Below, one piece after another: positions 10,722 to 23,898 of a stretch of 26,009 bases of DNA. The translations under genes and the position numbers were made by a program. Each line of letters starts with the position of its first letter. Positions within the stretch are counted from its first letter, which is position 1. Source of the stretch: Bacillota bacterium (GTDB lineage: Bacteria; Bacillota; Clostridia; Peptostreptococcales; Anaerovoracaceae); assembly GCA_017543805.1 (NCBI GenBank), contig JAFYFK010000204.1:1-26009 (forward strand), in the 5' to 3' direction. Below the pieces are notes generated by a model that saw only the letters and a program-made list of their open reading frames with translations, did no database searches and was not told where the DNA came from.

Positions 10722-10753
10722 AAGATCCGCTGCGCAATATTACGCAGCGGATC
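10722..10753. terminator. Bidirectional intrinsic terminator; left copy of 32-bp direct repeat
   Basis: AA-GATCCGCTGCG-CAATATTA-CGCAGCGGATC, 11-bp stem, between convergent DUF523 and S8 genes; identical to 23859-23890. Confidence 0.85.
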
Positions 10754-10791
10754 ATATTTATTTTGCGGTCATAAAATGTTTATAAACAATT

Positions 10792-12153
10792 TCACGGTCT
10801 TCTCGCTTCGGTCAGCGGCGCATATTTTGCCGCGCCGCAGAAGAACTGCGCCCAGCCGGCAGCTTCATCCGGCGCCTGCAGCGCTGCGCTCTCGCCCGGA
10901 TCGATCGTCAGAGTAAAAGCGCTGACGTTCAGGAAGCGGCCGTCCTCGTCATAGCGCGCAAGATAATATATGCATTCCAGCGTTTCCTCCGTGGCATTGC
11001 GGATACTCTCCGCGGGTCCGGTTTCCGGGGCAAGCAGGTATGGCGGTTTTTCCGCGCGGATGACGCTTGCCGCGATGTCCAGCAGGCCGTAGCCGTATTT
11101 ATCGTCACGCCCTGCATCGCCTTTGTCCACGGCAGTTTCGGCGAGGATCTCCCGTATATCCGCCGGGGTCAGTTCATCGTCGATGCTCAGCAATACTGCC
11201 GCCGCAGCCGCAGCGTACGGCGTTGAGAAGGATGTACCGGTGGAGGTCACATAGCCTCCGAGATTCCCCGCGGTCTTGACGTTCACGCCCGGCGCCGTAA
11301 GGAACACGCTGCTGTTATAGTTGGATCTGTAATACCAGTCTCCGTTCCGGTCCACGCTGCCGACACCGATCACTGTATCGTATGACGCGGGATAATAGAG
11401 AGCGGCAGTTCCGTTGTTGCCTGCCGCCGCGACCACCGTAACGCCTTTCTCCTCGGCGTATCCTATCGCCTCCGCAAGCAGCGTCGAATCGCTGTTTATG
11501 CCGACGCTCAGGTTGATGACATTGCAGCCGTAGTCGTCGACAGCGCCGTATATGGCGCTGCAGACCGTGCTGGTCATTACGGTCTTTCCGTCCGTTATCT
11601 TGAGCGGTACGATCTCCGCCTCCGGCGCCGCGCCTACATATCCGTCGTCTCCGGAACCCGCTATAAGCCCTGCGACGAGTGTGCCGTGGCCGTATTTGTC
11701 CGCGGTGTCGTCTTCGTCCGCGCCTTCCATGTAATTGTGTCCGGCCTGCAGGCAGTGATCAAGGAACGTTCCTGCATTGACTCCGGAGTCGATGACCGCC
11801 ACACGGACTCCCTGCCCCAGATATCCTTTGGCAAAGGCAATATCCGCGCCGATCAGGGCAAGATCCCATTTGTCGGAGGCGTAATACTGCGGCGGATCTT
11901 CATCCAGGATAGTCATGACCGAGTCCTGCTCATACCATTCGAGCTCTCCCGCCGCGTAAAGCCACCGCATCTCCGCCGCGCTGACCACCTCAAAACGGCT
12001 GTTTCCGTCCTTAAGCTTTACGATGTAATCCGGTTCTTCAGCTACTGCGGAGCAGGTCGGCAGAATGATAACAGCAAGCAGGGCTGCGGCCAGAAGCTGT
12101 AACCTGCGCGGAAACTTTTTATTCAGTTTTTCTCCGCTTTTTTTTATTTTCAT
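10792..12153 (-). CDS. Secreted S8 (subtilisin-like) serine protease
   Basis: Signal peptide (..LPTCSAVA), short prodomain, triad VAVIDSG / HGTLVAG / GTSFSTP, oxyanion AAAGN; ~85-aa C-terminal extension. Confidence 0.92.
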   Translation of the reverse strand: MKIKKSGEKLNKKFPRRLQLLAAALLAVIILPTCSAVAEEPDYIVKLKDGNSRFEVVSAAEMRWLYAAGELEWYEQDSVMTILDEDPPQYYASDKWDLALIGADIAFAKGYLGQGVRVAVIDSGVNAGTFLDHCLQAGHNYMEGADEDDTADKYGHGTLVAGLIAGSGDDGYVGAAPEAEIVPLKITDGKTVMTSTVCSAIYGAVDDYGCNVINLSVGINSDSTLLAEAIGYAEEKGVTVVAAAGNNGTAALYYPASYDTVIGVGSVDRNGDWYYRSNYNSSVFLTAPGVNVKTAGNLGGYVTSTGTSFSTPYAAAAAAVLLSIDDELTPADIREILAETAVDKGDAGRDDKYGYGLLDIAASVIRAEKPPYLLAPETGPAESIRNATEETLECIYYLARYDEDGRFLNVSAFTLTIDPGESAALQAPDEAAGWAQFFCGAAKYAPLTEARRP

Positions 12154-12210
12154 TTCCGGCTATATAATACCCTTATTTGGCCGGCAAATATACAACAAAT
12201 AAAAAAATCC

Positions 12211-12258
12211 AACAAATGATCCGCCGCATACAGGACAGTACACGACGGATCGTTTGTT
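12211..12258 (-). terminator. Intrinsic terminator after the giant surface protein gene
   Basis: AACAAATGATCCG/CGGATCGTTTGTT stem with one mismatch; followed on the minus strand by GGATTTTTTTATTT. Confidence 0.65.
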
Positions 12259-12273
12259 ATTTTACTGATATTT

Positions 12274-15200
12274 TTATTTATCCAGTGCGTCGACGAGTCT
12301 GCTGAACATGACAGCTATCTCGGCCCTGGTCGCCCCGTCCTTCGGAGCGAGCCTGCCGTCGGCCTTGCCCTGAACGACCTTGTTCATGGTCATCCAGCAG
12401 AGCGGCTCGTAAGCGTAGCCTGCCACCCGGTCCGCATCCGGATAATCGAGCCGGAAGCTCCACATCCCGCTGAATCCCTTGCCCTTGTACTTGGCGTAGC
12501 GGTACAGGAATGCGGCCAGCTGTTCACGGGTCACCTCTCCGTCCGGGTCGAAGGTGGTTTCGGTAGTGCCCATGACGATGCCGTTTGCGGCAGCCCAGTT
12601 TACAGCGGTCTCGTAGTAGCTGCCGGCCTTGAGGTCTGTAAATCCGTAAGCCTTAGCCTCCGGTCTGTTCTCAAGCCTCCACAGCATCGCGACGACCATC
12701 GCTCTGGTGGTGTGCGCGTTCGGGGCAAATGTCGTCTTCGAGGTACCGGCCATAAGTCCGTTCTCAAGAACGAAATGTAAGCCGTTGTGGTACCAGGCTT
12801 TCGGATCGGCGTCGGTAAAGACGTCTATCGGACAGCTTGCATCCTTCGGGCAGTTTGCGATATCCGCACTCTTATCGTCGTAAGCTATCACGTAGCTTGC
12901 CAGCGAAGACATCTCCCAACTCAGCTTTCCGTTCGTGTAGGTGGCCGGGATCTGAGTCTTCTCTCCGTTCTGGGAGATTCCCCAGACCGTTAAGCCGGAA
13001 GCCTTCTGGCCGTCCTTCAGAGCATAATCGACCGCTACTGTCGCGGTACCTCCTCCGAGGTCCGTAATGCGCTTTCCGCCGCCTGTCATATAGACTTCGT
13101 AGACTTCCTGTACGTCCATATCGCCGAGGGCTTCTGTCTGTTTTACGTTCAGATCCTTCTTTGCTATCGGAGCAACATTGATCTGCAGGTCCATTCCGGC
13201 GGTCTGCCCGGCAGCCGATGCAAGCGCCTTCGGACTTAAGGTCACGGTGCTGTTCGGAAGCTTAACGGTAAGTCCGTCCGCGTCGTCATCAATGGCCTCG
13301 TCGATGGCTTTTACGGTCTCGCCGGGGATGACTACAGAGCTGACGTTCTCAGGCATGCCGCTCAGGTCGACGGTGACGGATCCGGTCTCATTGCCGGCGC
13401 CGGTGATCTCCTTCATCTGGTCTTCGCTCGGTGCGGTAATGGTGGCGGTGCTGCCGTCAACGCTCGCGGTGACGGATGTGCTGCCTTCATCGCCGGACAC
13501 CTCTGCGGTCACAGCAGCGGATCCTGACGAAGATCCGGAGGAAGATGCAGGTTCATCGTCCGAAGTATTGTTTGACGTGCCGCTGACGGTAACGCCGATC
13601 TCTTTGCTTATGCCGGAGGGCATCAGCACCATCGTAAGTCTGGTGCTTCCGCCGTTCACGCCGGTCACGGTGCCGTCCTCATCCACTGTCGCCACGTTCG
13701 GATCAGCAATGCTGTATACCGCTTTCGGTTCCGCCATAAACACAGTGGAGTCATAGCTGACGGTCGTGGAAGCAGTGTTTCCGCTCTTAAGAGACAGGGC
13801 TTTTCCGCCGTTGAAATCGACATTCATCGGGTAGTCCATAGTGAACAGCTTCTGGCTGCTCTGTTTTATTATGCTGCCGTCCTTGTCGATAAGATTTATC
13901 TGGACAGCGTCGTAGCCGCAATATTTGAACAGGCTGGCCGGTATGGTCAGAAGCTGCTCATCCTCAAAGACGGAGCTGTTGATAGTTGAACCGGACGCAG
14001 TCTTGGCCGGGAGTTGAGCAGTAATGTCCTTGCTGTAGAGCAGGCCCGTCTCGATGTTGCCATAGCGGTCGCTGTCCAGATCGTCGTATAGACCGACCAG
14101 ATGGATCTCGACGGTGGTGCCCTCTTCGGCAGGTGCGTTGCCCCTGTTGGCTACTCTGTAGTCAATGCTGAACTGATCGCCGTCCTGCACGAGCTCGTTG
14201 ATCGTAATGTTAAAGTCAGGAGCTATGCTGAAGGTATCGGAATAAGACTTTGTATCAGCATAGTAGCCGCCCTTCGCATCCTTCTCTCTGATGACCGCCT
14301 GGATGCTGTAGCCGTCCGGGCCGTCCGCAGGCACTGTCCAGTTGAAGCAGATCTTCTTAGCGGTGTTGACCGGGATGGTCTCGTCGCTGGTATATGTATC
14401 ACCGATCTTGCGCTTCTGCACGCCGTCCTTGTACTCGTAGAATTCGACCACGCAGCCTTCGGCGTTGATCAGACCGACATTTTCGACAGCGGCGGTGACC
14501 TGAACAGTCTCGTTCGCGACGGGTCTGGTGTCACTGAACTCGAACTGGGTCGCCTCCAGAGAACCTACCTTTTCGCAGCGGGTAACGCTCAGGGTCACGG
14601 GGGAATTGTAGGTCAGGGACGCAGCATAATAGTTACCTTCCCTGTCCTGAGTCAGGCCGATCTTGCCCTGTTCGACAAGGCGTACGGCCTCTGCCTCGCT
14701 CTGTGCCATCAGTTTGGAATAACGGTTGTGGACGATCATAAGATCGCCGTTTTTGTCCAGCGCCAGCGCAAGACCGTCGTTGAACTCATTGCTTCTTGTA
14801 AGCCTGTATGGCTTGGACCAGCGGGCGGTACCGGGATCCATCGCGCCGTTCGGATCCTGCTGGATCATGGCGGAAGCGTAGATCTCCTGCGCTATGCTGG
14901 AACCGGTCTCGTCTGCTCCGCTGTCTGCGGCCACGCTGTCCGTCCAGACAACGTAGAGGTTGTCTGCCTCGTCGGTCATTACCTCATACTCGGTTATCTC
15001 GATGGCGTCAGCGGTCAGCAGAGACCCGAAGTCCACGCCCATAACTCTGGGCTCATACTGTCTTCCTGTCTTTGCGTCAGTGGCGAATGTGCCGTCGGGC
15101 TGCACTGCCCAGGTAACATCGGCTTCGGTGTAATTTGCCGCATCCTCGCCCTTGTCAGCGGTCGGAACCTTTGCCTTGAACATTTCGGAAACGTTCAGAT

Positions 15201-18200
15201 ATTTAAGTGTCTGACCGTCCTGACGCCAGAAGAGGAAGGTATTTCCGCCGTTCCTTATGAGCTTCGGCGTGCCTACCTCCACCTGTCTGGTCCTCTCAGT
15301 CATAACGAAGCTGCGTGTCGCCGGGTCGTAATCCTCGAGCTCTTCGGTGACACTGCCCGCAACGCGGACAGGAACGTAGGTGGTGTGTGTATTGAAATCG
15401 TAAGTCTGGACATAGAGAGCCCTGTCATCCGCGGTGTTCAGATCGAAGTCCGTATCCACCGTGTAGGCGTATACCGCAAGACCGTTGTAGCCGGAAGCTA
15501 CGGTAAGGTCAGTGATCGGCGGGTCGGTATTCTTACCGTTCTTATCGATCAGCACGGACGGCAGGAAACGCTGTCCGCCCCACTCCACCAGACTCTGCCG
15601 CTGATCGGCAACGCTCTCCGAAGTCTCGTTATCGAAGTAGTACGTGCGTGCCCAGCCCTTGCCCGGAGTCTGACCGAAGGTGTTCACCGCATCCTCCTGA
15701 TTGTTGTATAGCATGTATACGATGGCACTGTAGGTCTTGTCGGGATCGGGGCTTACAGCTGCCAGATCGAGGAGCTTCTCGCCTTCCGAGTCGTATTTGG
15801 AGTCATTCTGATCCGTCTTGGTGTAGTAGACGATATAGTCGCCGGTCTCGCCGTCATAGACCGCCTGTGGGAAGTCGTCGTAGTAATCGTCGTCCGTAAG
15901 CTGGACAATAGGTCCTAAGCCCGGTCTGGACTTATTGAACTCAACAGTAAAGATATCGAATATCTTCATTGCGGCTGCCGGATCCTTCTCCAGAGCCTGC
16001 TGAACCAGTTCGGGATCATCCGAGCCGATCTTCTGCGCAAATTCGTCCTTCAGGGCATTGTACTTGGCGTTGGAAGCGGATGCCCAGGAGATTATGACCT
16101 TGTTGCCGGCGTCGACCAGATTTGGCCTGCTGTCGGCGGTCATGTCGTTCTGTACGGTCTGAGGCTCAGTCCATGTATCGTATGTTGCGTCGTAGACTGT
16201 CCACTTGAGCGTTGCGGCCTGCATGGCGTCTCTTTCGGGACTGTCGTCCAGGAAGACCATAAGGAACTTATTATCGCCAATGTTGATTATCTTGCTGGAA
16301 GGCTGAGCAAAAGCATTCTCAACGATATCCTTTGTTACGACCGTACCGTATGCCGCCATCAGCTGGCCGTCATTGGCCACCCACTTTGAATCGACATGCG
16401 GGTTGGTGTGGTAAGCGAGTCCTGTAGGCTCATCGTCCTGCAGCACCGCGTTCATGACGGTACCGACAAGTCCGCCCTGCTTATTCATTTCAATGGCGTT
16501 GGCAGTGGTCCAGGTGATGATGTCGTGGTCGTAAGCCCATTTCTTGAGGTCGTAGGTCTTATCCTTGATGGCTTCGACATCGCCCTGATACTTATCCACG
16601 AAATCGCCAAGCTCCCGGCACTTCTGAAGGGCAGTTGCCCTGTCGGCCGCAGTACCGTGTTCGTCTTCTATGCCTTTTTCGACATAGCTGATGCATTTAT
16701 TGGCCCTGCGGACCTCCTGGAAGTAATACATGAAGCCGTCCGCAAGAGGCAGAGGCCAGGATGCCGAGTATACGTCTATTGATGTTATCACAAGGTCTAT
16801 AGTCCCTGTGAAGCCTGCTTCGGTCACGTAGCCCCAGCCTGTGTCAAACAGATCGGGGAACCAGTCTGTGACATTGTTGCTGTAGCCGGACTCAAATACC
16901 AGTTCTACGGTGATCCTCGCGCCGAGTATCTTGTACCAGCCTACGCCGAAGGTTCCGGATACATAGATGCGGCCCTTGAACTCGAAGTTGAAGCTGTAGT
17001 CCTGCGCGTGGACCTGGCTCTTGTTCTTGAAATCGTCAAGCTTCTCGTACTCGGCCAGCGTCTTGTTCGGATCGGCTGAAGCGCCGAGGAAGAAGGTGAC
17101 GTTCATGCCTGCCTCAACGTTGACATAAGCGGGGATGGGTCCCAACATGAAAGGCCATGTATAGCCCACGCCGCCTGTAAATCCGATGAAGCCGCCCGCG
17201 CCCATGAAGACCGCGTCATGGCTCTTCCCCACTCCGCCGTCCTTAGTCATGGAAAGGTCGATATAACCGAAATCGATATAGATGCCTACATAGACCGCGA
17301 TCTTAAAGTAGGGCCCGCCGAAATTGCTTAAATTCCTGGCGCCATAAGCGGCGGAATGGCCTATTCGGGAAACGTTATAGGCCTGATCCAGGTCAGAGGC
17401 GAGGCCGTAAGCATTCTGGATCGCGTTATAAGTCTGATTTTCCGCATAGGCTGCTTTGAATGAACCGACAGAATGGTAAGGATTCCTCTGACTGCTGTAT
17501 CCGCTGCCGCCGCCGGTGCTGACGACAACGCCCAGCATGAAGCGCACTCCGCCGTAGAATGTCTCTTCGAACTTGACCAGTATGCTGAAGACGAAGCTCT
17601 GCGTATAGCCGCCGCCCTCGCCCCCGGCATTGCCTCCGGCAATTTCGTCGTCGCCGAAGTCCAGGCCGTCTTCATCGTCATCTCCGCCCATGGATTCAAG
17701 ATCGGCCATGAGGGAATCCATCTCAGCGCTTGCCGTGGCGCTGGAGACTACCCTGGATACGACGGTGACCGCTGCGGTTATAGCCCCGATGTAGGGGAAG
17801 GAACCGAAGCTTGCGCGCTTGTCGTCCGCAAGCAGGTTTCCGTCCTCGTCCGTCTTGGGCTCGACGCCCAGAAGGCTTGCAACGTCTTCAATGTCGTAGT
17901 CAAAGACCTGAGTCTTGAAATCCGGATCTGATATTACTGCATAACCTGTAGAGACCGGATCATAAACCATCTGCTTTTCGCCGGTAAAGGCGGTGGTCAC
18001 GGTCTGCTTGTCCGTTGTGAGCCTGCACATCAGCACGTCGCCGTAAGTCCAGGATTCGGGATTCTTCGGAGTGAACTGCGCAATATCAAGAGTAAAGGTC
18101 CCTCCGCCGTTTCCGTCAGGCACCCAGCCCCATTTTGCGGGAGAATCCTTACTAGGCGTGACGTTGGAAGAGAAGTACCCGTGGATCTCTCCGGTATTCT

Positions 18201-21200
18201 GATCCTGGAAGTAGACTGTTACGTCCTTTATGTTCTCAGTAAGGATCTGGCCGTTAAGAACATACTGGCCGCCCACGACCTTGATGTCAGCGAGCAGTCT
18301 GTTGCCGTTCATGGCAAGAGCGTCGACCACACCTGCGATCTTTCCGCCCTGCTGTACAAAGGCGCTCTCGAAATGAGCTCCGGTGGACGAGAAGTTCTCG
18401 ACCGTCACGAGGCCGGCCTTGGCCTTTACAGCCTTGACGCTTTCGCTGTCGACAGTCACAGCGGAATAAGTCCTGGAGGTCGCGGCGGGGACCATGGCCT
18501 CCTTAATGCTGCTGACGCCGTTATAGTTGATCAGGAAGCGTACAAGAGTGCTGGCGCACACGCGCACCGCAGGCATTTCAAATTCGCCCTCTTCGTTCGT
18601 CCAGGCGCCTGTCTTACCGTAGGACACATAGGCGTTCTCAGCCGCGATAATGTCGTTTGCGCTGCGTTCCGTGTTAAGGTTGAATGTAGAGCTCGCCACT
18701 GTGCCGCTTAAGGTCATATAGGTGAGCTTCTGGCCCGTGGGCACAGTCAGTTTGATGACATTGTCCGCAGGCTGGGGATTCGTAAGATGATAGAACGTTT
18801 CGCCGGAATAGGTCTTATTGTCGGACGTTGTCCAGCGCGCGATGCTGCTGCCGTCCTTTGCATAGGCCTCAAGCGCGTAGACGTCGTTGATGAGGACCTT
18901 CCTGGCGACGACGATGTAGTAAATGCCGTTATCGTTTGAAATGCTGACATGATTGCCGTCGGCGAAGATGCCCCTGGTCGTGTCGAGCTTTTCATACTCA
19001 GCGTCAGTGACCGTGACCACCAGATTGTTCGCATTGCTGGTGAAGACCGGCCTGAGCAGATAATGAGGTCTGTCGACGTCCTTGCCGCCGCTGTTCTTTC
19101 CGCTGAGTTCAAAGGGGATCGAACCGTTGACGTAGCCTACCGTGTTCCAGTTGACCAGGTCGCCCGTGCTGCCCTGCGTGCGCAGTTCGTAATACACGCC
19201 TACAGGCTCCATCTCATTCTCTGTTCCGTAAGCGGTGAGGATGGTCGACAGGGTCAGATTGTCACCGAGGTGGTAAGCGACACCGGTGGGAAGATTCAGA
19301 TAGCCGCTGGCATCACTCTGGATCTCCAGTTCGACATCGATATAATCGAACACCGGGCGGAAGACAAGGTCGCCCTTGTAACTCTTTCCGTTGAGATTGC
19401 CGTTTTCGGACCATTTGATCGCTCCCATTTTGTAGAGCTTGTTGATCGTTTCCGCGTCCAGATTTACAACGACGCTCGAAGTCTTGCCGTCGATAGAGGC
19501 AAAGCTCTTCCATTCTCCCGTAGCCGGGATCTGCACATCAAGGCCGACAAGCTGCAGCGGGTTATTGGTCTTGGCTGTAACAGAGAAGCTGTCTTCCGTC
19601 CAATAGCTGGCGCGGGAATTGTCTCTGCTGTCCAGGTATACCGCTTCGTAGTCTGCAAGCACGGTATCGTCGTCAACGCCGATCAGGGGCTTTACCTCCG
19701 GCGCTTCGAGCTTCACGTCAAACTGACGGAGAATATAATGGATATCCTCAACGTAAAGTTCAGGCCAGCTGTCCTGCCATCTGAAGCCCTCCGTCGCGTC
19801 TGTGTTTTCACAGTAGACACCGATGCTGGTGATCTTGGCTGCTTCCGGATCGATGGCGTTCCAGGCGCAGTAGAGCCAGTGGCCATAATACCAGCCGTCG
19901 TCATCGAAGCGGTCGTCCATCGCACTTTCGAAACGGTCCGGGTAATGACGGCCGATCCGCCAGCTGACGTCGCAGTTGTTGGCCTGACCGTAATAGTCCA
20001 GGTAGATGCCGTCGTAAGCGACTCCTTTGAGCATGGATGTCCACATATAGTAAGCAGCCCACTCTTCCACTCGGTTGTGAGTGCTGAGATAGACCTGGGT
20101 GTCGCTCTTGAAGCAGCTTCCGCTGCCGCCGGAAAGTGTGCCGGATTTGACCTGTATGGGGTCCATCGACACGGGTCTGCCGGTCTGAGCGATAGTCTTG
20201 TTGTCGAACATCAGCTCACCGTCGCCGGAAATGTTCTTCGCCGCCGGAATTATGACGTGAGTAGTCGAAAGTGTTATATTTTCATCAGAAAGAGGTGTTA
20301 TGGTCACATAAAAGTCTTTCTGCTCCGTTCCGTGGTATACAGGGATCTGTATTGAACGGGTGGTAAGACCCATGGAGAAATACAGCTTGGCGCCGATGCC
20401 GCTGTATTCATCGCCCTGCTTTGCGCTGCCGTCCCAGGAAGAGACGCGCACTCCCTTAAGCGCATTGATCCTGCCGCTGCGGTTGACGGTAATGACCGCC
20501 ACACCGTCCTCGGCATATACGGTGCTCTGAGCCATGCTTATGGTGACAGGCGAAGGTTCGTCCTCATCCCGGATGATGACAGAAACGGGGTTGACGTCTT
20601 CTCCTATCTCAAAGCCCTCGCCGGGCTTCTTGAGCATCAGCATTATCATGGCGTCGCCTTCGGCGGCGTCGGAATGCATCGGTGTAACGACAAGGAATTT
20701 GACCTTCTCGCCTGCGGAGAAATACAGGCGGTATTCCTTGCCCGGATAGCTCTCCTGTGTGGCGTCGGCCATCTCCTGATCAAACTCGTCCTCAGTCATG
20801 GTGTTGGTTCCGAGGCCGGTAAGGAGATCTCCGCCTTCAAGCTTCTGACGGTCGGATACGGTTCCTGTATATCTGTTGCGCGCGTCGCGCAGCGCTCCCG
20901 CCGAAGAAGCAGGCTTATCCGTATTGCGTTCCGTGAACCACCCAGTCTCTTCGACATCGCCGGGAATGACAGCCTCTTCTGCAGGCATTGCTTCTTCGGG
21001 CTCCCCGGGTCCTTCTTCGAGTACCGGTTCTTCAGGCTCTTCTTCGAGTGCCGGCTCTTCAGGCTCTTCAGCTTCAGGTTCATTCTGAACTGCCGGATCG
21101 CCGTTTTCGTCGAGAGGCGTTACGCTTACGGTACCTACCGTGTTGCCTTCGCCGTCCACTATCTCAGCACCGCCGTACTCGTTTATCGCATCGCCCAGAT

Positions 21201-21636
21201 CGTTTTCGTCACCGACCTCGACTTCCTCTATGCTTTCCGCATTCTGAATAAGGTCGACGATGGCATCGCCGCCGAAGACGGTCTCCGGCTCGACATCCTC
21301 TTTATATATCTCCACGGTATAGTTCTCATCGTGGCGGGCGCTCAGGTCTATGAGCTTAAGCGTTACCTCCGTCTCCACATCCGTATCGCCTGTGCGCTGG
21401 ATGGGGATGTAGAGCTTATCCGTGCTGTTTTCGCTGATAGTATAGCTGGATTCCGGTATGAAGAACCAGTTCCCGCCGTCCCGGAACTTATCCGGTACGG
21501 CCAGCGTTATCTCTTCCGTCGGGTCGATCTTTCTGACGATCTCTTCCGCAGCCCAGACTATAGTATATTGACACAACTGGGTCAGCATGAAAACTGCCAG
21601 AAGAACGGCGATGGATCTTCTGCAATGTCGCTTCAT
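12274..21636 (-). CDS. 3120-aa SLH-anchored surface protein (Calx-beta x2, beta-rich core, propeller-like region, CARDB-like x2, Big_2, 3 SLH)
   Basis: SD AGGAGG; signal peptide ending VWA; Calx-beta-like FFIPESSYTISE..RTG and VITVNRSG..GSAKQGDEY; CARDB-like VTAAVENVG and YRVANRGN; Big_2 PNVATVDEDGTVTGV..G; three SLH repeats (TRAMVV, TREQLA, TRAEIA) at ~12277-12825. Confidence 0.85.
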   Translation of the reverse strand: MKRHCRRSIAVLLAVFMLTQLCQYTIVWAAEEIVRKIDPTEEITLAVPDKFRDGGNWFFIPESSYTISENSTDKLYIPIQRTGDTDVETEVTLKLIDLSARHDENYTVEIYKEDVEPETVFGGDAIVDLIQNAESIEEVEVGDENDLGDAINEYGGAEIVDGEGNTVGTVSVTPLDENGDPAVQNEPEAEEPEEPALEEEPEEPVLEEGPGEPEEAMPAEEAVIPGDVEETGWFTERNTDKPASSAGALRDARNRYTGTVSDRQKLEGGDLLTGLGTNTMTEDEFDQEMADATQESYPGKEYRLYFSAGEKVKFLVVTPMHSDAAEGDAMIMLMLKKPGEGFEIGEDVNPVSVIIRDEDEPSPVTISMAQSTVYAEDGVAVITVNRSGRINALKGVRVSSWDGSAKQGDEYSGIGAKLYFSMGLTTRSIQIPVYHGTEQKDFYVTITPLSDENITLSTTHVIIPAAKNISGDGELMFDNKTIAQTGRPVSMDPIQVKSGTLSGGSGSCFKSDTQVYLSTHNRVEEWAAYYMWTSMLKGVAYDGIYLDYYGQANNCDVSWRIGRHYPDRFESAMDDRFDDDGWYYGHWLYCAWNAIDPEAAKITSIGVYCENTDATEGFRWQDSWPELYVEDIHYILRQFDVKLEAPEVKPLIGVDDDTVLADYEAVYLDSRDNSRASYWTEDSFSVTAKTNNPLQLVGLDVQIPATGEWKSFASIDGKTSSVVVNLDAETINKLYKMGAIKWSENGNLNGKSYKGDLVFRPVFDYIDVELEIQSDASGYLNLPTGVAYHLGDNLTLSTILTAYGTENEMEPVGVYYELRTQGSTGDLVNWNTVGYVNGSIPFELSGKNSGGKDVDRPHYLLRPVFTSNANNLVVTVTDAEYEKLDTTRGIFADGNHVSISNDNGIYYIVVARKVLINDVYALEAYAKDGSSIARWTTSDNKTYSGETFYHLTNPQPADNVIKLTVPTGQKLTYMTLSGTVASSTFNLNTERSANDIIAAENAYVSYGKTGAWTNEEGEFEMPAVRVCASTLVRFLINYNGVSSIKEAMVPAATSRTYSAVTVDSESVKAVKAKAGLVTVENFSSTGAHFESAFVQQGGKIAGVVDALAMNGNRLLADIKVVGGQYVLNGQILTENIKDVTVYFQDQNTGEIHGYFSSNVTPSKDSPAKWGWVPDGNGGGTFTLDIAQFTPKNPESWTYGDVLMCRLTTDKQTVTTAFTGEKQMVYDPVSTGYAVISDPDFKTQVFDYDIEDVASLLGVEPKTDEDGNLLADDKRASFGSFPYIGAITAAVTVVSRVVSSATASAEMDSLMADLESMGGDDDEDGLDFGDDEIAGGNAGGEGGGYTQSFVFSILVKFEETFYGGVRFMLGVVVSTGGGSGYSSQRNPYHSVGSFKAAYAENQTYNAIQNAYGLASDLDQAYNVSRIGHSAAYGARNLSNFGGPYFKIAVYVGIYIDFGYIDLSMTKDGGVGKSHDAVFMGAGGFIGFTGGVGYTWPFMLGPIPAYVNVEAGMNVTFFLGASADPNKTLAEYEKLDDFKNKSQVHAQDYSFNFEFKGRIYVSGTFGVGWYKILGARITVELVFESGYSNNVTDWFPDLFDTGWGYVTEAGFTGTIDLVITSIDVYSASWPLPLADGFMYYFQEVRRANKCISYVEKGIEDEHGTAADRATALQKCRELGDFVDKYQGDVEAIKDKTYDLKKWAYDHDIITWTTANAIEMNKQGGLVGTVMNAVLQDDEPTGLAYHTNPHVDSKWVANDGQLMAAYGTVVTKDIVENAFAQPSSKIINIGDNKFLMVFLDDSPERDAMQAATLKWTVYDATYDTWTEPQTVQNDMTADSRPNLVDAGNKVIISWASASNAKYNALKDEFAQKIGSDDPELVQQALEKDPAAAMKIFDIFTVEFNKSRPGLGPIVQLTDDDYYDDFPQAVYDGETGDYIVYYTKTDQNDSKYDSEGEKLLDLAAVSPDPDKTYSAIVYMLYNNQEDAVNTFGQTPGKGWARTYYFDNETSESVADQRQSLVEWGGQRFLPSVLIDKNGKNTDPPITDLTVASGYNGLAVYAYTVDTDFDLNTADDRALYVQTYDFNTHTTYVPVRVAGSVTEELEDYDPATRSFVMTERTRQVEVGTPKLIRNGGNTFLFWRQDGQTLKYLNVSEMFKAKVPTADKGEDAANYTEADVTWAVQPDGTFATDAKTGRQYEPRVMGVDFGSLLTADAIEITEYEVMTDEADNLYVVWTDSVAADSGADETGSSIAQEIYASAMIQQDPNGAMDPGTARWSKPYRLTRSNEFNDGLALALDKNGDLMIVHNRYSKLMAQSEAEAVRLVEQGKIGLTQDREGNYYAASLTYNSPVTLSVTRCEKVGSLEATQFEFSDTRPVANETVQVTAAVENVGLINAEGCVVEFYEYKDGVQKRKIGDTYTSDETIPVNTAKKICFNWTVPADGPDGYSIQAVIREKDAKGGYYADTKSYSDTFSIAPDFNITINELVQDGDQFSIDYRVANRGNAPAEEGTTVEIHLVGLYDDLDSDRYGNIETGLLYSKDITAQLPAKTASGSTINSSVFEDEQLLTIPASLFKYCGYDAVQINLIDKDGSIIKQSSQKLFTMDYPMNVDFNGGKALSLKSGNTASTTVSYDSTVFMAEPKAVYSIADPNVATVDEDGTVTGVNGGSTRLTMVLMPSGISKEIGVTVSGTSNNTSDDEPASSSGSSSGSAAVTAEVSGDEGSTSVTASVDGSTATITAPSEDQMKEITGAGNETGSVTVDLSGMPENVSSVVIPGETVKAIDEAIDDDADGLTVKLPNSTVTLSPKALASAAGQTAGMDLQINVAPIAKKDLNVKQTEALGDMDVQEVYEVYMTGGGKRITDLGGGTATVAVDYALKDGQKASGLTVWGISQNGEKTQIPATYTNGKLSWEMSSLASYVIAYDDKSADIANCPKDASCPIDVFTDADPKAWYHNGLHFVLENGLMAGTSKTTFAPNAHTTRAMVVAMLWRLENRPEAKAYGFTDLKAGSYYETAVNWAAANGIVMGTTETTFDPDGEVTREQLAAFLYRYAKYKGKGFSGMWSFRLDYPDADRVAGYAYEPLCWMTMNKVVQGKADGRLAPKDGATRAEIAVMFSRLVDALDK
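21014..21067. repeat. 2 x 27-bp tandem repeat encoding EEPEEP(A/V)LE
   Basis: tcttcgagtaccggttcttcaggctct / tcttcgagtgccggctcttcaggctct, 25 of 27 identical. Confidence 0.85.
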
Positions 21637-21669
21637 GAGTGTATTCCTCCTGCTTATATTACAGTCTGT

Positions 21670-21855
21670 TTAGACCTTGTCTCTTAATTCGGCAGTAATA
21701 TCACTGACGGGAACGCGGGGAGCGTTGGCTAAGCCGCGTCCGCCGGCGACATCGTCCATTACCTTGTCTTCCAGTTCCTTCAAATCGGTTTCCGGCATGA
21801 CATCCGGCGTTCCGGCTGCCTTTGCTGCTTTGTGATTCTTTTTTCTGAATAACAT
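21670..21855 (-). CDS. 61-aa peptide precursor with double-glycine-type leader
   Basis: SD AAAGGAG 8 nt before ATG 21855; leader ends ELEDKVMDDVAGG (L-12, M-7, V-4, GG); predicted core RGLANAPRVPVSDITAELRDKV. Confidence 0.75.
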   Translation of the reverse strand: MLFRKKNHKAAKAAGTPDVMPETDLKELEDKVMDDVAGGRGLANAPRVPVSDITAELRDKV

Positions 21856-21909
21856 GACTGTATCTCCTTTATGTGGTAAATAAATTTTCATTAGTATTTT
21901 AGATATTCA

Positions 21910-21984
21910 ATTATATTATATGTTTATAGATTATTACGAATAACAGGATTATATGTAAGTGGATGTTTCAAAATGAATCATTTT
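21910..21984. promoter_or_regulatory. AT-rich divergent control region with palindrome and direct repeats
   Basis: AAAATGA-A-TCATTTT (21970-21984); ATTATATGT at 21915 and 21948; minus-strand TATAAT boxes at 21910-15, 21915-20, 21948-53. Confidence 0.45.
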
Positions 21985-22012
21985 TTGTAACAGTGCTATT
22001 GCGCTTTTTTCC

Positions 22013-22041
22013 GCGACAGTTTATCCTTTGTCCTGTAAAAT
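22013..22041 (+). promoter_or_regulatory. Candidate sigma-A promoter of the regulator-kinase operon
   Basis: GCGACA (22013-18), 17 bp, TAAAAT (22036-41). Confidence 0.5.
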
Positions 22042-22061
22042 GCTGAAAGGTGCGAGATACC

Positions 22062-22652
22062 ATGACCAAGTCCTTCGGCGAGATACTTCGCCGTCTGAGA
22101 ATCGAAAAAGGCCTGTCCCAGCAGCAGCTTGCGGACAGGCTTTACGTACAGCGTCCGAGCCTCACTAACTGGGAGACAGGCCGCCGTATACCTGACGTGG
22201 TCATGATCTCCAGAATTGCAGAAGCTCTGGGCGTGGAAACTTCCGCCCTTCTGGATGCAGCAAAGGAGCCCGGAGAGGCTCCGAACGTTATGCTGGTGGA
22301 CGACGAAGCCATCATACTCGACGGCGGACTGCCTGTTTTGCGGGAAGCTCTGCCGAAAGCGAATATTGTGGGATTTACAAAGCCGCTTGAGGCGGTCGAA
22401 TACATCAGGAATCATCCCGTGGCACTGGCATTTATCGACATCGAACTGGGGCGTGCAAGCGGTCTTGACCTGTGCAGGGAGCTGCTCAGCATAAAGCCCC
22501 GTACTAACGTGGTCTTCCTCACCGCTTTCCGGGAATATTCCTTTGATGCCTGGGGCACAGGCGCCTGCGGTTTTCTGCTGAAACCTCTGGAAGCGGATGC
22601 CGTGCGCGCACAGCTTTCCTGCCTGCGTTTTCCTGTTGAGGGCCTGCTGTAA
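22062..22652 (+). CDS. Response regulator with N-terminal XRE HTH and C-terminal receiver domain
   Basis: XRE HTH LRRLRIEKGLSQQQLA..WETGRRIPD; REC motifs VMLVDDE, AFIDIEL, FLTA, LLKP; SD AAAGGTG 9 nt before ATG 22062 (alternative GTG 22050); TAATG overlap with kinase. Confidence 0.9.
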   Translation: MTKSFGEILRRLRIEKGLSQQQLADRLYVQRPSLTNWETGRRIPDVVMISRIAEALGVETSALLDAAKEPGEAPNVMLVDDEAIILDGGLPVLREALPKANIVGFTKPLEAVEYIRNHPVALAFIDIELGRASGLDLCRELLSIKPRTNVVFLTAFREYSFDAWGTGACGFLLKPLEADAVRAQLSCLRFPVEGLL

Positions 22653-23857
22653 TGGAATTGTATTACTCATCGATCATGGAGGCTGCCGCGATCCCGTTCG
22701 GAATTTCCGGACTGGTGGTTATGTATTTTGCCCGCGGCATCGACAGATGGCCAAGGCGTCTCTGCATCGCCATAATGTGCTCCTCGGTCGCAGCGGCAGT
22801 CTTAAACCTGCTTGGAAACGCCGCTTTTTATTATCACGCGTCCCTTCCTCTATGCTGGGCGGTGATTATCGCAGAAAACCTTATAGTCCCGATCCCGTCA
22901 CTGCTGATAACCGCATATCTTTTGTACTGCTCCGGAGAAGACTGGCGCAGCAGCGCATTGATGCATATTCTGGGGGCACTTACATGCATCCTGATCCTCG
23001 CTGAGATCGTGGGATACTTCACCGGCGAGCACTCCATCACCCCTGAATACAGAGTCAGCTTCGGCAGATTGTCCGTTTACTATTGGGTCCTGATGGCGGC
23101 TATGACGGTCATTTTCCTCATGGCCATCATCAGAAGATGGAAAAAGCTGACCACGCCGCAGCGAATCATTTTTCTTGTAAGCTTCATCTCTCCGTCCTAC
23201 ATACAATGTGTGCTTCTTACTCTTATCATCCTTGCAGATCTTATACACAGCTATACGAAGCAGATGGAAGAAACGGCGCGTCAGAAAACGCAGATCGCAG
23301 TACTGAAGATGCGTCCGCATTTTATCCATAACACACTGATGAGCATCTACTACCTCTGCGCAAAAGATCCCGAGAAGGCGCAGAAAGTCATAAAGGATTT
23401 CTCCCGGTACCTGCAGAACAATTTCACCGCGATCGCAGAGGAATCGACTGTCCCCTTCTCCAAGGAACTGGAGCACACGCAGGCGTATCTTGCGGTGGAA
23501 AAGGCGCGTTATGAAGGCCGGCTGTTCGTGGAATTTGACACCCCCAATACATTTTTCCGCATCCCGCCGCTTACGCTGCAGCCCATCGTGGAAAACGCCA
23601 TAAAGCACGGACTGGACCCCGACCTCGAACCGCTGTATGTTTCCGTGGTTACTGAGGATGCCGACGACGGCGTCCGGATAATCGTGGAAGACACAGGACC
23701 CGGTTATGCCCCGTCGGATGACAGACCGCACTTTGCCCTCGACAATATCCGCGAACGGCTGGAGACCATGTGCGGCGGCACTCTGCAGATCGAAAAGCGC
23801 GACGCCGGCGGCACAAAGGTGACTGTTTTTGTTCCCTGGAAAGACGTGAAAAAATAA
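22652..23857 (+). CDS. LytS/YehU-type multi-TM sensor histidine kinase, paralogue of 18..1292
   Basis: 401 aa; LKMRPHFIHNTL H-box, LQPIVENAIKHG, EDTGPG; hydrophobic N-terminal half with no large extracellular loop. Confidence 0.9.
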   Translation: MELYYSSIMEAAAIPFGISGLVVMYFARGIDRWPRRLCIAIMCSSVAAAVLNLLGNAAFYYHASLPLCWAVIIAENLIVPIPSLLITAYLLYCSGEDWRSSALMHILGALTCILILAEIVGYFTGEHSITPEYRVSFGRLSVYYWVLMAAMTVIFLMAIIRRWKKLTTPQRIIFLVSFISPSYIQCVLLTLIILADLIHSYTKQMEETARQKTQIAVLKMRPHFIHNTLMSIYYLCAKDPEKAQKVIKDFSRYLQNNFTAIAEESTVPFSKELEHTQAYLAVEKARYEGRLFVEFDTPNTFFRIPPLTLQPIVENAIKHGLDPDLEPLYVSVVTEDADDGVRIIVEDTGPGYAPSDDRPHFALDNIRERLETMCGGTLQIEKRDAGGTKVTVFVPWKDVKK

Positions 23858-23858
23858 A

Positions 23859-23898
23859 AAGATCCGCTGCGCAATATTACGCAGCGGATCTCTTTTTT
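23859..23898. terminator. Bidirectional intrinsic terminator; right copy of 32-bp direct repeat
   Basis: Same 11-bp stem hairpin as 10724-10753; followed by TCTTTTTT on + and preceded by an A-run. Confidence 0.88.

Follow-up and report, generated by a model that had tools for sequence, protein, structure and literature searches.

Peptides that carry a double-glycine (GG) leader are normally read as bacteriocins or pheromones. Does such a peptide have to be either of these when its gene directly precedes that of a giant surface protein? The question is raised by a block at positions 10722-23890 of contig JAFYFK010000204.1 (assembly GCA_017543805.1, a Bacillota bacterium of the family Anaerovoracaceae); the window is the whole stretch of DNA that was analyzed, 26,009 nt long. 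An earlier annotation made from the letters of this DNA, hereafter the original prediction, had described a GG-leader peptide, a giant SLH protein and an S8 protease encoded leftward, and an XRE-REC regulator and a membrane kinase encoded rightward, and had read them as a pheromone circuit. Open reading frame (ORF) listing and family scans recovered every gene of that divergent layout:

21670-21855, minus strand: peptide precursor ORF, 61 aa, with its ATG 7 nt past AAAGGAG
12274-21636, minus strand: giant protein, 3120 aa, with a signal-peptide-like N-terminus, Calx-beta, CARDB and Big_2 domains and three SLH repeats (Pfam)
10792-12153, minus strand: S8 protease, 453 aa; a signal peptide and a short I9-like pro-region precede the catalytic domain (~95-363), and ~90 aa follow it as a C-terminal extension
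22062-22652, plus strand: XRE-REC response regulator, 196 aa, with the helix-turn-helix (HTH) at ~9-65 and the receiver at ~76-185, a reversed domain order
22652-23857, plus strand: membrane histidine kinase, 401 aa, with six hydrophobic segments followed by PF06580 His_kinase and HATPase_c

The reading that we favor, and to which we give about an even chance, is that the block is one copy of a conserved peptide-giant-protease cassette with a locally acquired two-component system, in which the peptide would be an extracellular partner and the regulators exchangeable. We propose an extracellular partnership because the peptide gene is fixed to the giant and S8 genes whichever regulator is present, and we favor it over a pheromone because the core of the peptide is conserved and most loci lack a membrane sensor beside the cassette.

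Homologs of the giant protein (24-61% identity) were found in three Anaerovoracaceae genomes and at 34 metagenome loci, the latter by scanning metagenomes with its N-terminus. Labels such as L133 denote these and other homologous loci or contigs compared with the window, and C-numbers denote contigs of the window genome. A related small ORF lies beside each of the giant homologs in the three Anaerovoracaceae genomes. By tblastn and ORF reading, a peptide gene adjoins the giant gene in 35 of the 36 loci that were informative, 40-300 nt upstream of it in 33 and immediately downstream in two. In 21 loci an S8 homolog stands beside this pair, closely preceding the peptide gene or closely following the giant gene. 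The fullest locus, L133, has the order histidine kinase, response regulator, GG ORF, PCAT_A, PCAT_B, peptide, peptide, S8, giant, where PCAT (peptidase-containing ABC transporter) denotes a heterodimeric exporter whose A subunit has a C39 peptidase and whose B subunit has none. At L184, S8, peptide and giant genes stand in this order amid metabolic genes, and neither a regulator nor an exporter is encoded within 10 kb of the cassette; the assemblies are fragmented, and gene absence near a locus is often uninformative. The cassette records come from rumen and gut Clostridia, the two named ones being Oscillospiraceae.

Three types of regulator accompany the cassette. An extracytoplasmic function (ECF)-type sigma factor with an overlapping small partner ORF is present at 12 loci, and no membrane sensor was found beside these sigma-factor cassette loci. 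A PF06580 kinase with a REC-Trans_reg_C (OmpR-type) regulator is present in L111/L144, L127 and L133, which represent three lineages. The XRE-REC regulator with a PF06580 kinase is found at the cassette in the window species only, so that a kinase stands beside the cassette in only four lineages of loci overall. The cassette-linked kinases of L111 and L133 are 53% identical in the sensor half and 68% in the catalytic half. A PCAT A+B pair lies inside the cluster at about 10 loci (about a third). This distribution suggests that peptide, giant protein and S8 protease form a conserved unit served by PCAT, with interchangeable regulators. No description of the cassette, of the XRE-REC/PF06580 pair or of GG-motif anti-sigma partners was found in open-access text.

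A further ORF of 96 aa, with a textbook GG leader and a His-rich core of ~73 aa, comes after the kinase and regulator genes at cassette loci with the PF06580/REC-Trans_reg_C system (L111:13737-14027, minus strand; L133:3009-3293; L144:1693-1980). It could be the own signal or product of that system.

The precursor in the window was divided as follows:

21739-21855, minus strand: double-glycine leader, residues 1-39, with a Lys-rich start, hydrophobic residues at -15/-12/-7/-4 and G-G at -2/-1
21670-21738, minus strand: predicted mature core, 22 aa plus stop codon, with the PRVP and ELR motifs of the family; a divergent member

The leader ends in VAGG, followed by R, with V at -4, M at -7 and L at -12 and -15; the core is Cys-free and has a net charge of +1. 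As the original prediction had it, no terminator-like site is present in the 33-nt gap between the peptide and giant genes, which carries AGGAGG. A single-sequence search with the window peptide returned just three near-identical proteins, and none in 400 genomes of Anaerovoracaceae; its family was reached only via the homologs of the giant protein. A profile built from 23 locus peptides was then searched against 1.84 billion protein representatives. It matched 216 clusters at E ≤ 1e-3, most of them proteins 50-68 aa long, and 59 reached E ≤ 1e-10. All 35 profile-matched members inspected have the same core, ...[ND]PF...PRVP..PID..LR.., and a strong Shine-Dalgarno sequence precedes 25 of 25 locus peptide genes. 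No Pfam or NCBIfam model matched the family at threshold; the weak sub-threshold matches were to GG-leader families only, at the level of the leader (plantaricin C, mersacidin/cytolysin and class IIb families).

The family leader has a Lys-rich N-terminus followed by an acidic stretch with L at -7 and V at -4. Across 162 members, G occupies -2 in 153 (94%) and G or A occupies -1 in 158 (98%), positions that were built into the search pattern; not forced by it were L at -12 (78%; hydrophobic in 94%) and E at -13 (64%). This canonical pattern bears out the claim that the peptide is a genuine double-glycine-leader precursor. The family core follows the consensus (G)[ND]P[FW]xxx(P)RVPxxPIDx[DE]LRxx. 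Its median length is 23 aa, it contains 12% Pro and 0.2% Cys, and it is mostly net-negative. Averaged over pairs of members, identity reaches 40% in the core, as against 39% over the last 15 residues of the leader and 28% for the N-terminal part. Judged by these features, the peptide is a member of a real family that has no curated Pfam or NCBIfam model.

The window genome contains at least 12 other GG-leader ORFs, many of them Cys-rich. Two further Cys-free ones directly precede SLH surface-protein genes (L115, contig C28, 29-2719; L188, contig C200, 1477-1632): one is separated from its SLH gene by 3 nt and the other overlaps it by 8 nt. A PCAT pair adjoins the C28 ORF. It may be general in this organism for a GG-leader peptide to be paired with an SLH protein that follows it.

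The giant protein is presumably exported, its SLH repeats serving for wall anchoring. About 2,400 of its residues have no Pfam match, and the matches in a PDB sequence search were confined to the SLH region. An AlphaFold2 model of residues 1150-2300, from a 7-row alignment, had a mean pLDDT of 47 and a predicted template modeling score (pTM) of 0.38. In this low-confidence model, the Gly/aromatic-rich segment encoded at 16760-17810 of the window (residues ~1275-1625) appears as very long beta-hairpins with strands of 20-30 residues, too uncertain for a fold to be named.

The S8 protein matches Peptidase_S8 in Pfam (E = 1.4e-47), and in the PDB it is matched best by subtilisin BL and Savinase (E about 1e-37); it is predicted to be a secreted subtilisin without a C-terminal membrane anchor. 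Assignment as a type VII secretion mycosin was rejected: the score against NCBIfam TIGR03921 was 203.7 bits, below the cut-off of 278.75, and there is no hydrophobic C-terminal segment. One further element separates its gene from that of the giant protein:

12218-12251, minus strand: hairpin between the giant and S8 genes, terminator-like, with a weak T tail

The rightward genes have the domains that had been read in them, namely HTH_3 (4.7e-15) and Response_reg (9.1e-15) in the regulator, and PF06580 (E = 4.8e-18) and HATPase_c (E = 2.5e-09) in the LytS-type kinase; translational coupling is likewise supported, the TAA of the regulator overlapping the ATG of the kinase as TAATG. The receiver is closest to those of BtsR and LytR, and the regulator contains no LytTR domain. 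More than 1,500 homologs were found at E ≤ 1e-5, and the start was placed at 22062, giving 196 aa, because nearly all of them have that length. The 120 homologs listed are 68-100% identical to the window regulator, and an overlapping PF06580 kinase gene directly follows each regulator homolog examined. Full-length relatives with 52-74% identity are in records labeled Oscillospiraceae, Lachnospiraceae, Ruminococcus, Eubacterium, Schwartzia and Coriobacteriaceae/Atopobiaceae, a taxon spread that suggests horizontal transfer of the XRE-REC module.

The N-terminal half of the kinase matches no Pfam family at E ≤ 0.01, and no 5TMR-LYT sensor domain was found in it. Compared with its five closest relatives, the membrane/sensor half is 36-47% identical and the catalytic half 77-83%; against more distant relatives, identity in the membrane half does not exceed 31% or can no longer be detected. 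The neighbors of the module vary and are often surface proteins. Among them are an SLH-HAD protein, a beta-helix protein of 1838 aa, an LPXTG/SpaA protein of 1792 aa accompanied by a signal peptidase, GGDEF/EAL proteins, and a dockerin-S41 protein encoded behind a polytopic protein of 222 aa. The peptide family of the window was found at none of 28 other XRE-REC/kinase loci, and a stop-to-stop ORF rescan found a GG-leader peptide of any kind at one of the 28, L013. The linkage of this regulator and kinase to such peptides elsewhere, on which the original prediction depended, is thus largely missing. As judged from these loci, the XRE-REC/PF06580 pair is a plug-in module of wide occurrence whose membrane sensor is hypervariable, and it is not bound to the peptide.

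L013 (8878-10397) belongs to an Oscillospiraceae metagenome-assembled genome and has the closest relative of the window XRE-REC/kinase pair. Its gene order is a TetR-like gene, a GG-leader peptide of a different family with a 12-aa core, 34 nt, and a large secreted beta-helix protein that runs off the contig end. In L015 (504-5196; uncultured Clostridiales RUG103), a PCAT A+B pair and a REC-type regulator lie 3-7 kb upstream of the XRE-REC gene. In the window itself, a second PF06580 and HATPase_c kinase of 424 aa, 40% identical to the kinase at 22652-23857, is encoded at the very contig start (18-1292, plus strand); any regulator of it would be off the assembly.

The peptide and regulator genes share a 206-bp intergenic region, in which three candidate sites were found:

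21930-21959, minus strand: sigma-70 promoter-like site facing the peptide-giant operon, 9/12 matches, a consensus match only
22013-22041, plus strand: sigma-70 promoter-like site facing the regulator-kinase operon, a consensus match only
21965-21979, unstranded: inverted repeat GTTTCA-N3-TGAATC, candidate XRE-REC operator, the only match in the window with 0.06 expected by chance

The perfect form of the repeat, GTTTCA-N3-TGAAAC, occurs ~100 nt upstream of the XRE-REC start in L006, L009, L011 and L013. The window copy, at the same distance, has one mismatch to it, and 5 nt separate it from the -35 of the promoter-like site that faces leftward. The arrangement of XRE-REC system and cassette is unchanged in the conspecific contig L005. 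Control of the leftward operon by the XRE-REC system is plausible and would be the most economical reading of the shared intergenic region.

Exporter genes were sought throughout the cassette genomes. C39 transporters are present in 4 of 4 cassette genomes (four genera) and in 40 of 198 high-quality genomes of the family background, an enrichment that is suggestive, related genomes not being independent samples. The window genome has two full-length C39 transporters, in pairs on contigs C28 and C138, which are 62-66% (A subunit) and 52-59% (B subunit) identical to the cassette-linked pairs.

ECF-type sigma genes with the small partner ORF were located at the following positions:

L186 (window genome, contig C108), 622-1316, minus strand: ECF-type sigma gene and small ORF
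L125, 672-1354: ECF-type sigma gene and small ORF
L183, 7851-8539: ECF-type sigma gene and small ORF
L185, 7854-8530: ECF-type sigma gene and small ORF

The sigma gene is preceded by an overlapping ORF of 61-69 aa with a C-terminal GG-leader-like sequence, ...LS..EL..VSAAG, plus a short tail; no hydrophobic stretch was seen in it. The sigma/small-ORF pair belongs to many cassette loci, and in the window genome it stands alone on C108 among unrelated genes. The small ORF may encode an anti-sigma partner that is cut by a C39 peptidase. Elsewhere in these clusters, ORFs for STAS (anti-sigma antagonist-like) proteins lie right beside GG-leader peptide genes (L142:2206-2328; L115, ~8055 onward), and at L185 a small HATPase_c_2 protein is encoded upstream of the PCAT pair, which hints at a partner-switching module.

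Put together as a mechanism, the favored reading runs as follows. From sequence and co-occurrence, the precursor would be cut after G-G/A and exported by a heterodimeric C39-ABC transporter, in the window species in trans by one of the two PCAT pairs on other contigs. Outside the cell, the released Cys-free, Pro-rich peptide of ~22 aa would act alongside the giant protein, the subtilisin or both, being a ligand, cofactor or substrate. The mobile XRE-REC regulator and six-segment PF06580 kinase, divergent from the cassette, would most likely drive the leftward peptide-giant(-S8) operon via 21965-21979; feedback from the peptide to the kinase would be possible and is not required by the data. 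A bolder version, which we consider speculative and more probably wrong than right by a wide measure, is that the family is a new PCAT-exported class, neither bacteriocin nor classical pheromone, of conserved ~22-aa extracellular partners of giant SLH proteins, which would be ligands, cofactors or S8-processed activators, with the common cassette gated by its exporter. In that common form, the C39 domain could also cleave the GG-like product of the sigma-partner ORF, thereby releasing the sigma factor; the logic of such a secretion-coupled switch would resemble that of FlgM export.

Several observations weigh against the extracellular partnership. The proposed role is drawn only from gene linkage and core conservation, and the core of the window peptide itself has a mean identity of 30% to the other family cores. 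The exporter genes are not in the window, and the assembly is fragmented. The S8 gene, behind its hairpin, may be transcribed separately. The PF06580 kinases beside the cassette in three lineages, with their relatively conserved sensor halves, favor signaling, as does the presence of a GG-leader peptide next to the nearest XRE-REC relative in L013. These last two points belong to the autoinducer circuit of the original prediction, in which the mature 22-aa peptide, exported by PCAT, would be sensed by the six-segment kinase; the kinase would phosphorylate XRE-REC, and this would activate the peptide-giant(-S8) operon in a positive feedback. We take this account seriously and yet doubt it. The core is short, Cys-free and without the cationic hydrophobic character usual in bacteriocins; the layout is divergent, with the operator-like repeat abutting the leftward -35; the sensor halves of the XRE-REC-linked kinases diverge far faster than the catalytic halves, as expected for ligand-specific sensors; in L013 a different GG-leader peptide precedes a different large secreted protein; and some cassette loci are linked to another type of PF06580 kinase and its regulator. 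However, a GG-leader peptide is absent from 27 of the 28 other XRE-REC/kinase loci; at most cassette loci the regulator is a sigma factor with a small ORF, or is missing, and no membrane sensor adjoins; and the peptide gene is fixed to the effector genes and not to the sensor genes. The mature parts of ComC/BlpC-type pheromones are hypervariable and comC, blpC and plnA are located with their own kinase and regulator genes, whereas the core of the present family is as conserved as its leader across genera. Autoinduction through the kinase is possible, but it is not the general logic of the cassette. What stands of the pheromone circuit is therefore its parts (the leader, the C39 exporters, the kinase and regulator types, the operator-like repeat, the hypervariable sensor and the case of L013); what does not is the bond between peptide and regulator, the peptide being tied instead to the giant protein and S8.

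The local control that the favored reading assumes could also be mistaken: the two-component system would then be a passenger of the same insertion, acting on itself alone or on some other target, and the cassette controlled in trans, for example by the sigma/small-partner pair on C108. The presence in the window genome of the pair that is typical of cassette loci agrees with this, as do the highly variable neighbors of the XRE-REC module, and the repeat, whose spacing to the XRE-REC start is constant over all loci examined, may serve autoregulation only. We nevertheless consider a passenger improbable, given that 5 nt of the shared intergenic region separate the repeat from the leftward -35, that the conspecific contig has the same arrangement and that the C108 pair is among unrelated genes. 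Least probable of all, and in our estimate very unlikely, is an antimicrobial or RiPP-type product (a peptide made by the ribosome and modified after translation) with two-step maturation (PCAT at GG, then trimming by S8, as in cytolysin or lichenicidin), the giant protein being unrelated cargo or a producer-protection factor. The joint presence of PCAT and subtilisin in one cluster, the weak leader matches to bacteriocin families and the other, often Cys-rich GG-leader ORFs of the window genome speak for such a product. It would leave the near-universal adjacency to the giant gene unexplained, the cores are nearly free of Cys and mostly net-negative, and no modifying enzyme is encoded in the window or at the cassette loci examined.

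Among known systems, ComC/ComAB/ComDE, BlpC/BlpAB/BlpRH and PlnA/PlnGH/PlnBCD, the three-component pheromone systems of Firmicutes, share with the cassette a GG-leader precursor, C39-ABC export and a polytopic kinase with a regulator nearby. They use AgrC/ComD-type kinases and regulators with a C-terminal LytTR, whereas the window kinase is of the PF06580 (LytS/BtsS) type and its regulator has an N-terminal XRE HTH. The window peptide gene is placed with the giant effector gene and not with kinase and regulator, and most homologous cassettes, unlike those systems, are without any kinase while conserving the mature part across genera. LytSR and BtsSR (YehUT) have the same PF06580 and HATPase_c transmitter on a polytopic sensor, and receivers close to that of the window regulator, but the window kinase lacks a detected 5TMR-LYT, the XRE HTH stands before the receiver instead of a LytTR after it, and the sensor half is hypervariable.

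In the two-peptide lantibiotics cytolysin (CylB and CylA) and lichenicidin (LicT and LicP), whose leaders are removed in two steps, the GG-leader peptide is encoded, as here, together with a PCAT and an S8 protease that is subtilisin-like and extracellular. The cassette differs in having Cys-free cores, no LanM or other modifying enzyme, and the giant SLH protein as a constant partner; the window S8 protein is nearest to generic subtilisins, with no LicP, CylA or NisP chain among its 60 best PDB matches. Of the features of class II lanthipeptides, neither a Cys/Ser/Thr-rich core nor a LanM-type synthetase was found, the latter in the window or at the cassette loci examined. By analogy only, with no homology claimed, the LapA/LapG/LapD system of Pseudomonas also combines a giant surface protein, a dedicated extracytoplasmic protease and a signaling input, although its protease is a BTLCP cysteine protease and not an S8 enzyme, its cell envelope is different and LapA has no peptide partner.

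The block is bounded by repeats, as had been predicted, with an exact 32-nt direct repeat at both ends:

10722-10753, unstranded: left 32-nt direct repeat, a G+C-rich hairpin and bidirectional terminator-like site
23859-23890, unstranded: right 32-nt direct repeat, an exact copy of 10722-10753

Only these two copies, in the same orientation, are present in the 1.76-Mb assembly (79% complete). The hairpin at 12218-12251 has the same GATCCG...CGGATC stem ends as the boundary repeat, which suggests a family of related terminator hairpins. The genes flanking the block are housekeeping genes, encoding RecJ, a CtpB-like S41 protease, FtsEX with an M23 hydrolase, a HIT protein and a radical-SAM methylthiotransferase-like protein. 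The latter gene, next to HIT, is labeled here as MiaB/MtaB-like, and the two are conserved neighbors in 25 of 29 relatives. A 2-thiouracil-desulfurase gene was found within 1.5 kb of HIT in none of the 29, so an empty insertion site cannot be demonstrated in relatives in that way.

The locus thus points to a whole family of GG-leader peptides with a conserved non-bacteriocin core, which in uncultured Clostridia of rumen and gut are genetically fixed to a subtilisin and to wall-anchored proteins of ~3,000 residues. Should peptide and giant protein act together, PCAT-exported peptides would have a third kind of job, and the function of giant S-layer-associated proteins, most of which lack annotation, would become easier to approach. 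The swapping of regulators at the cassette would provide a natural experiment on the rewiring of surface-protein operons.

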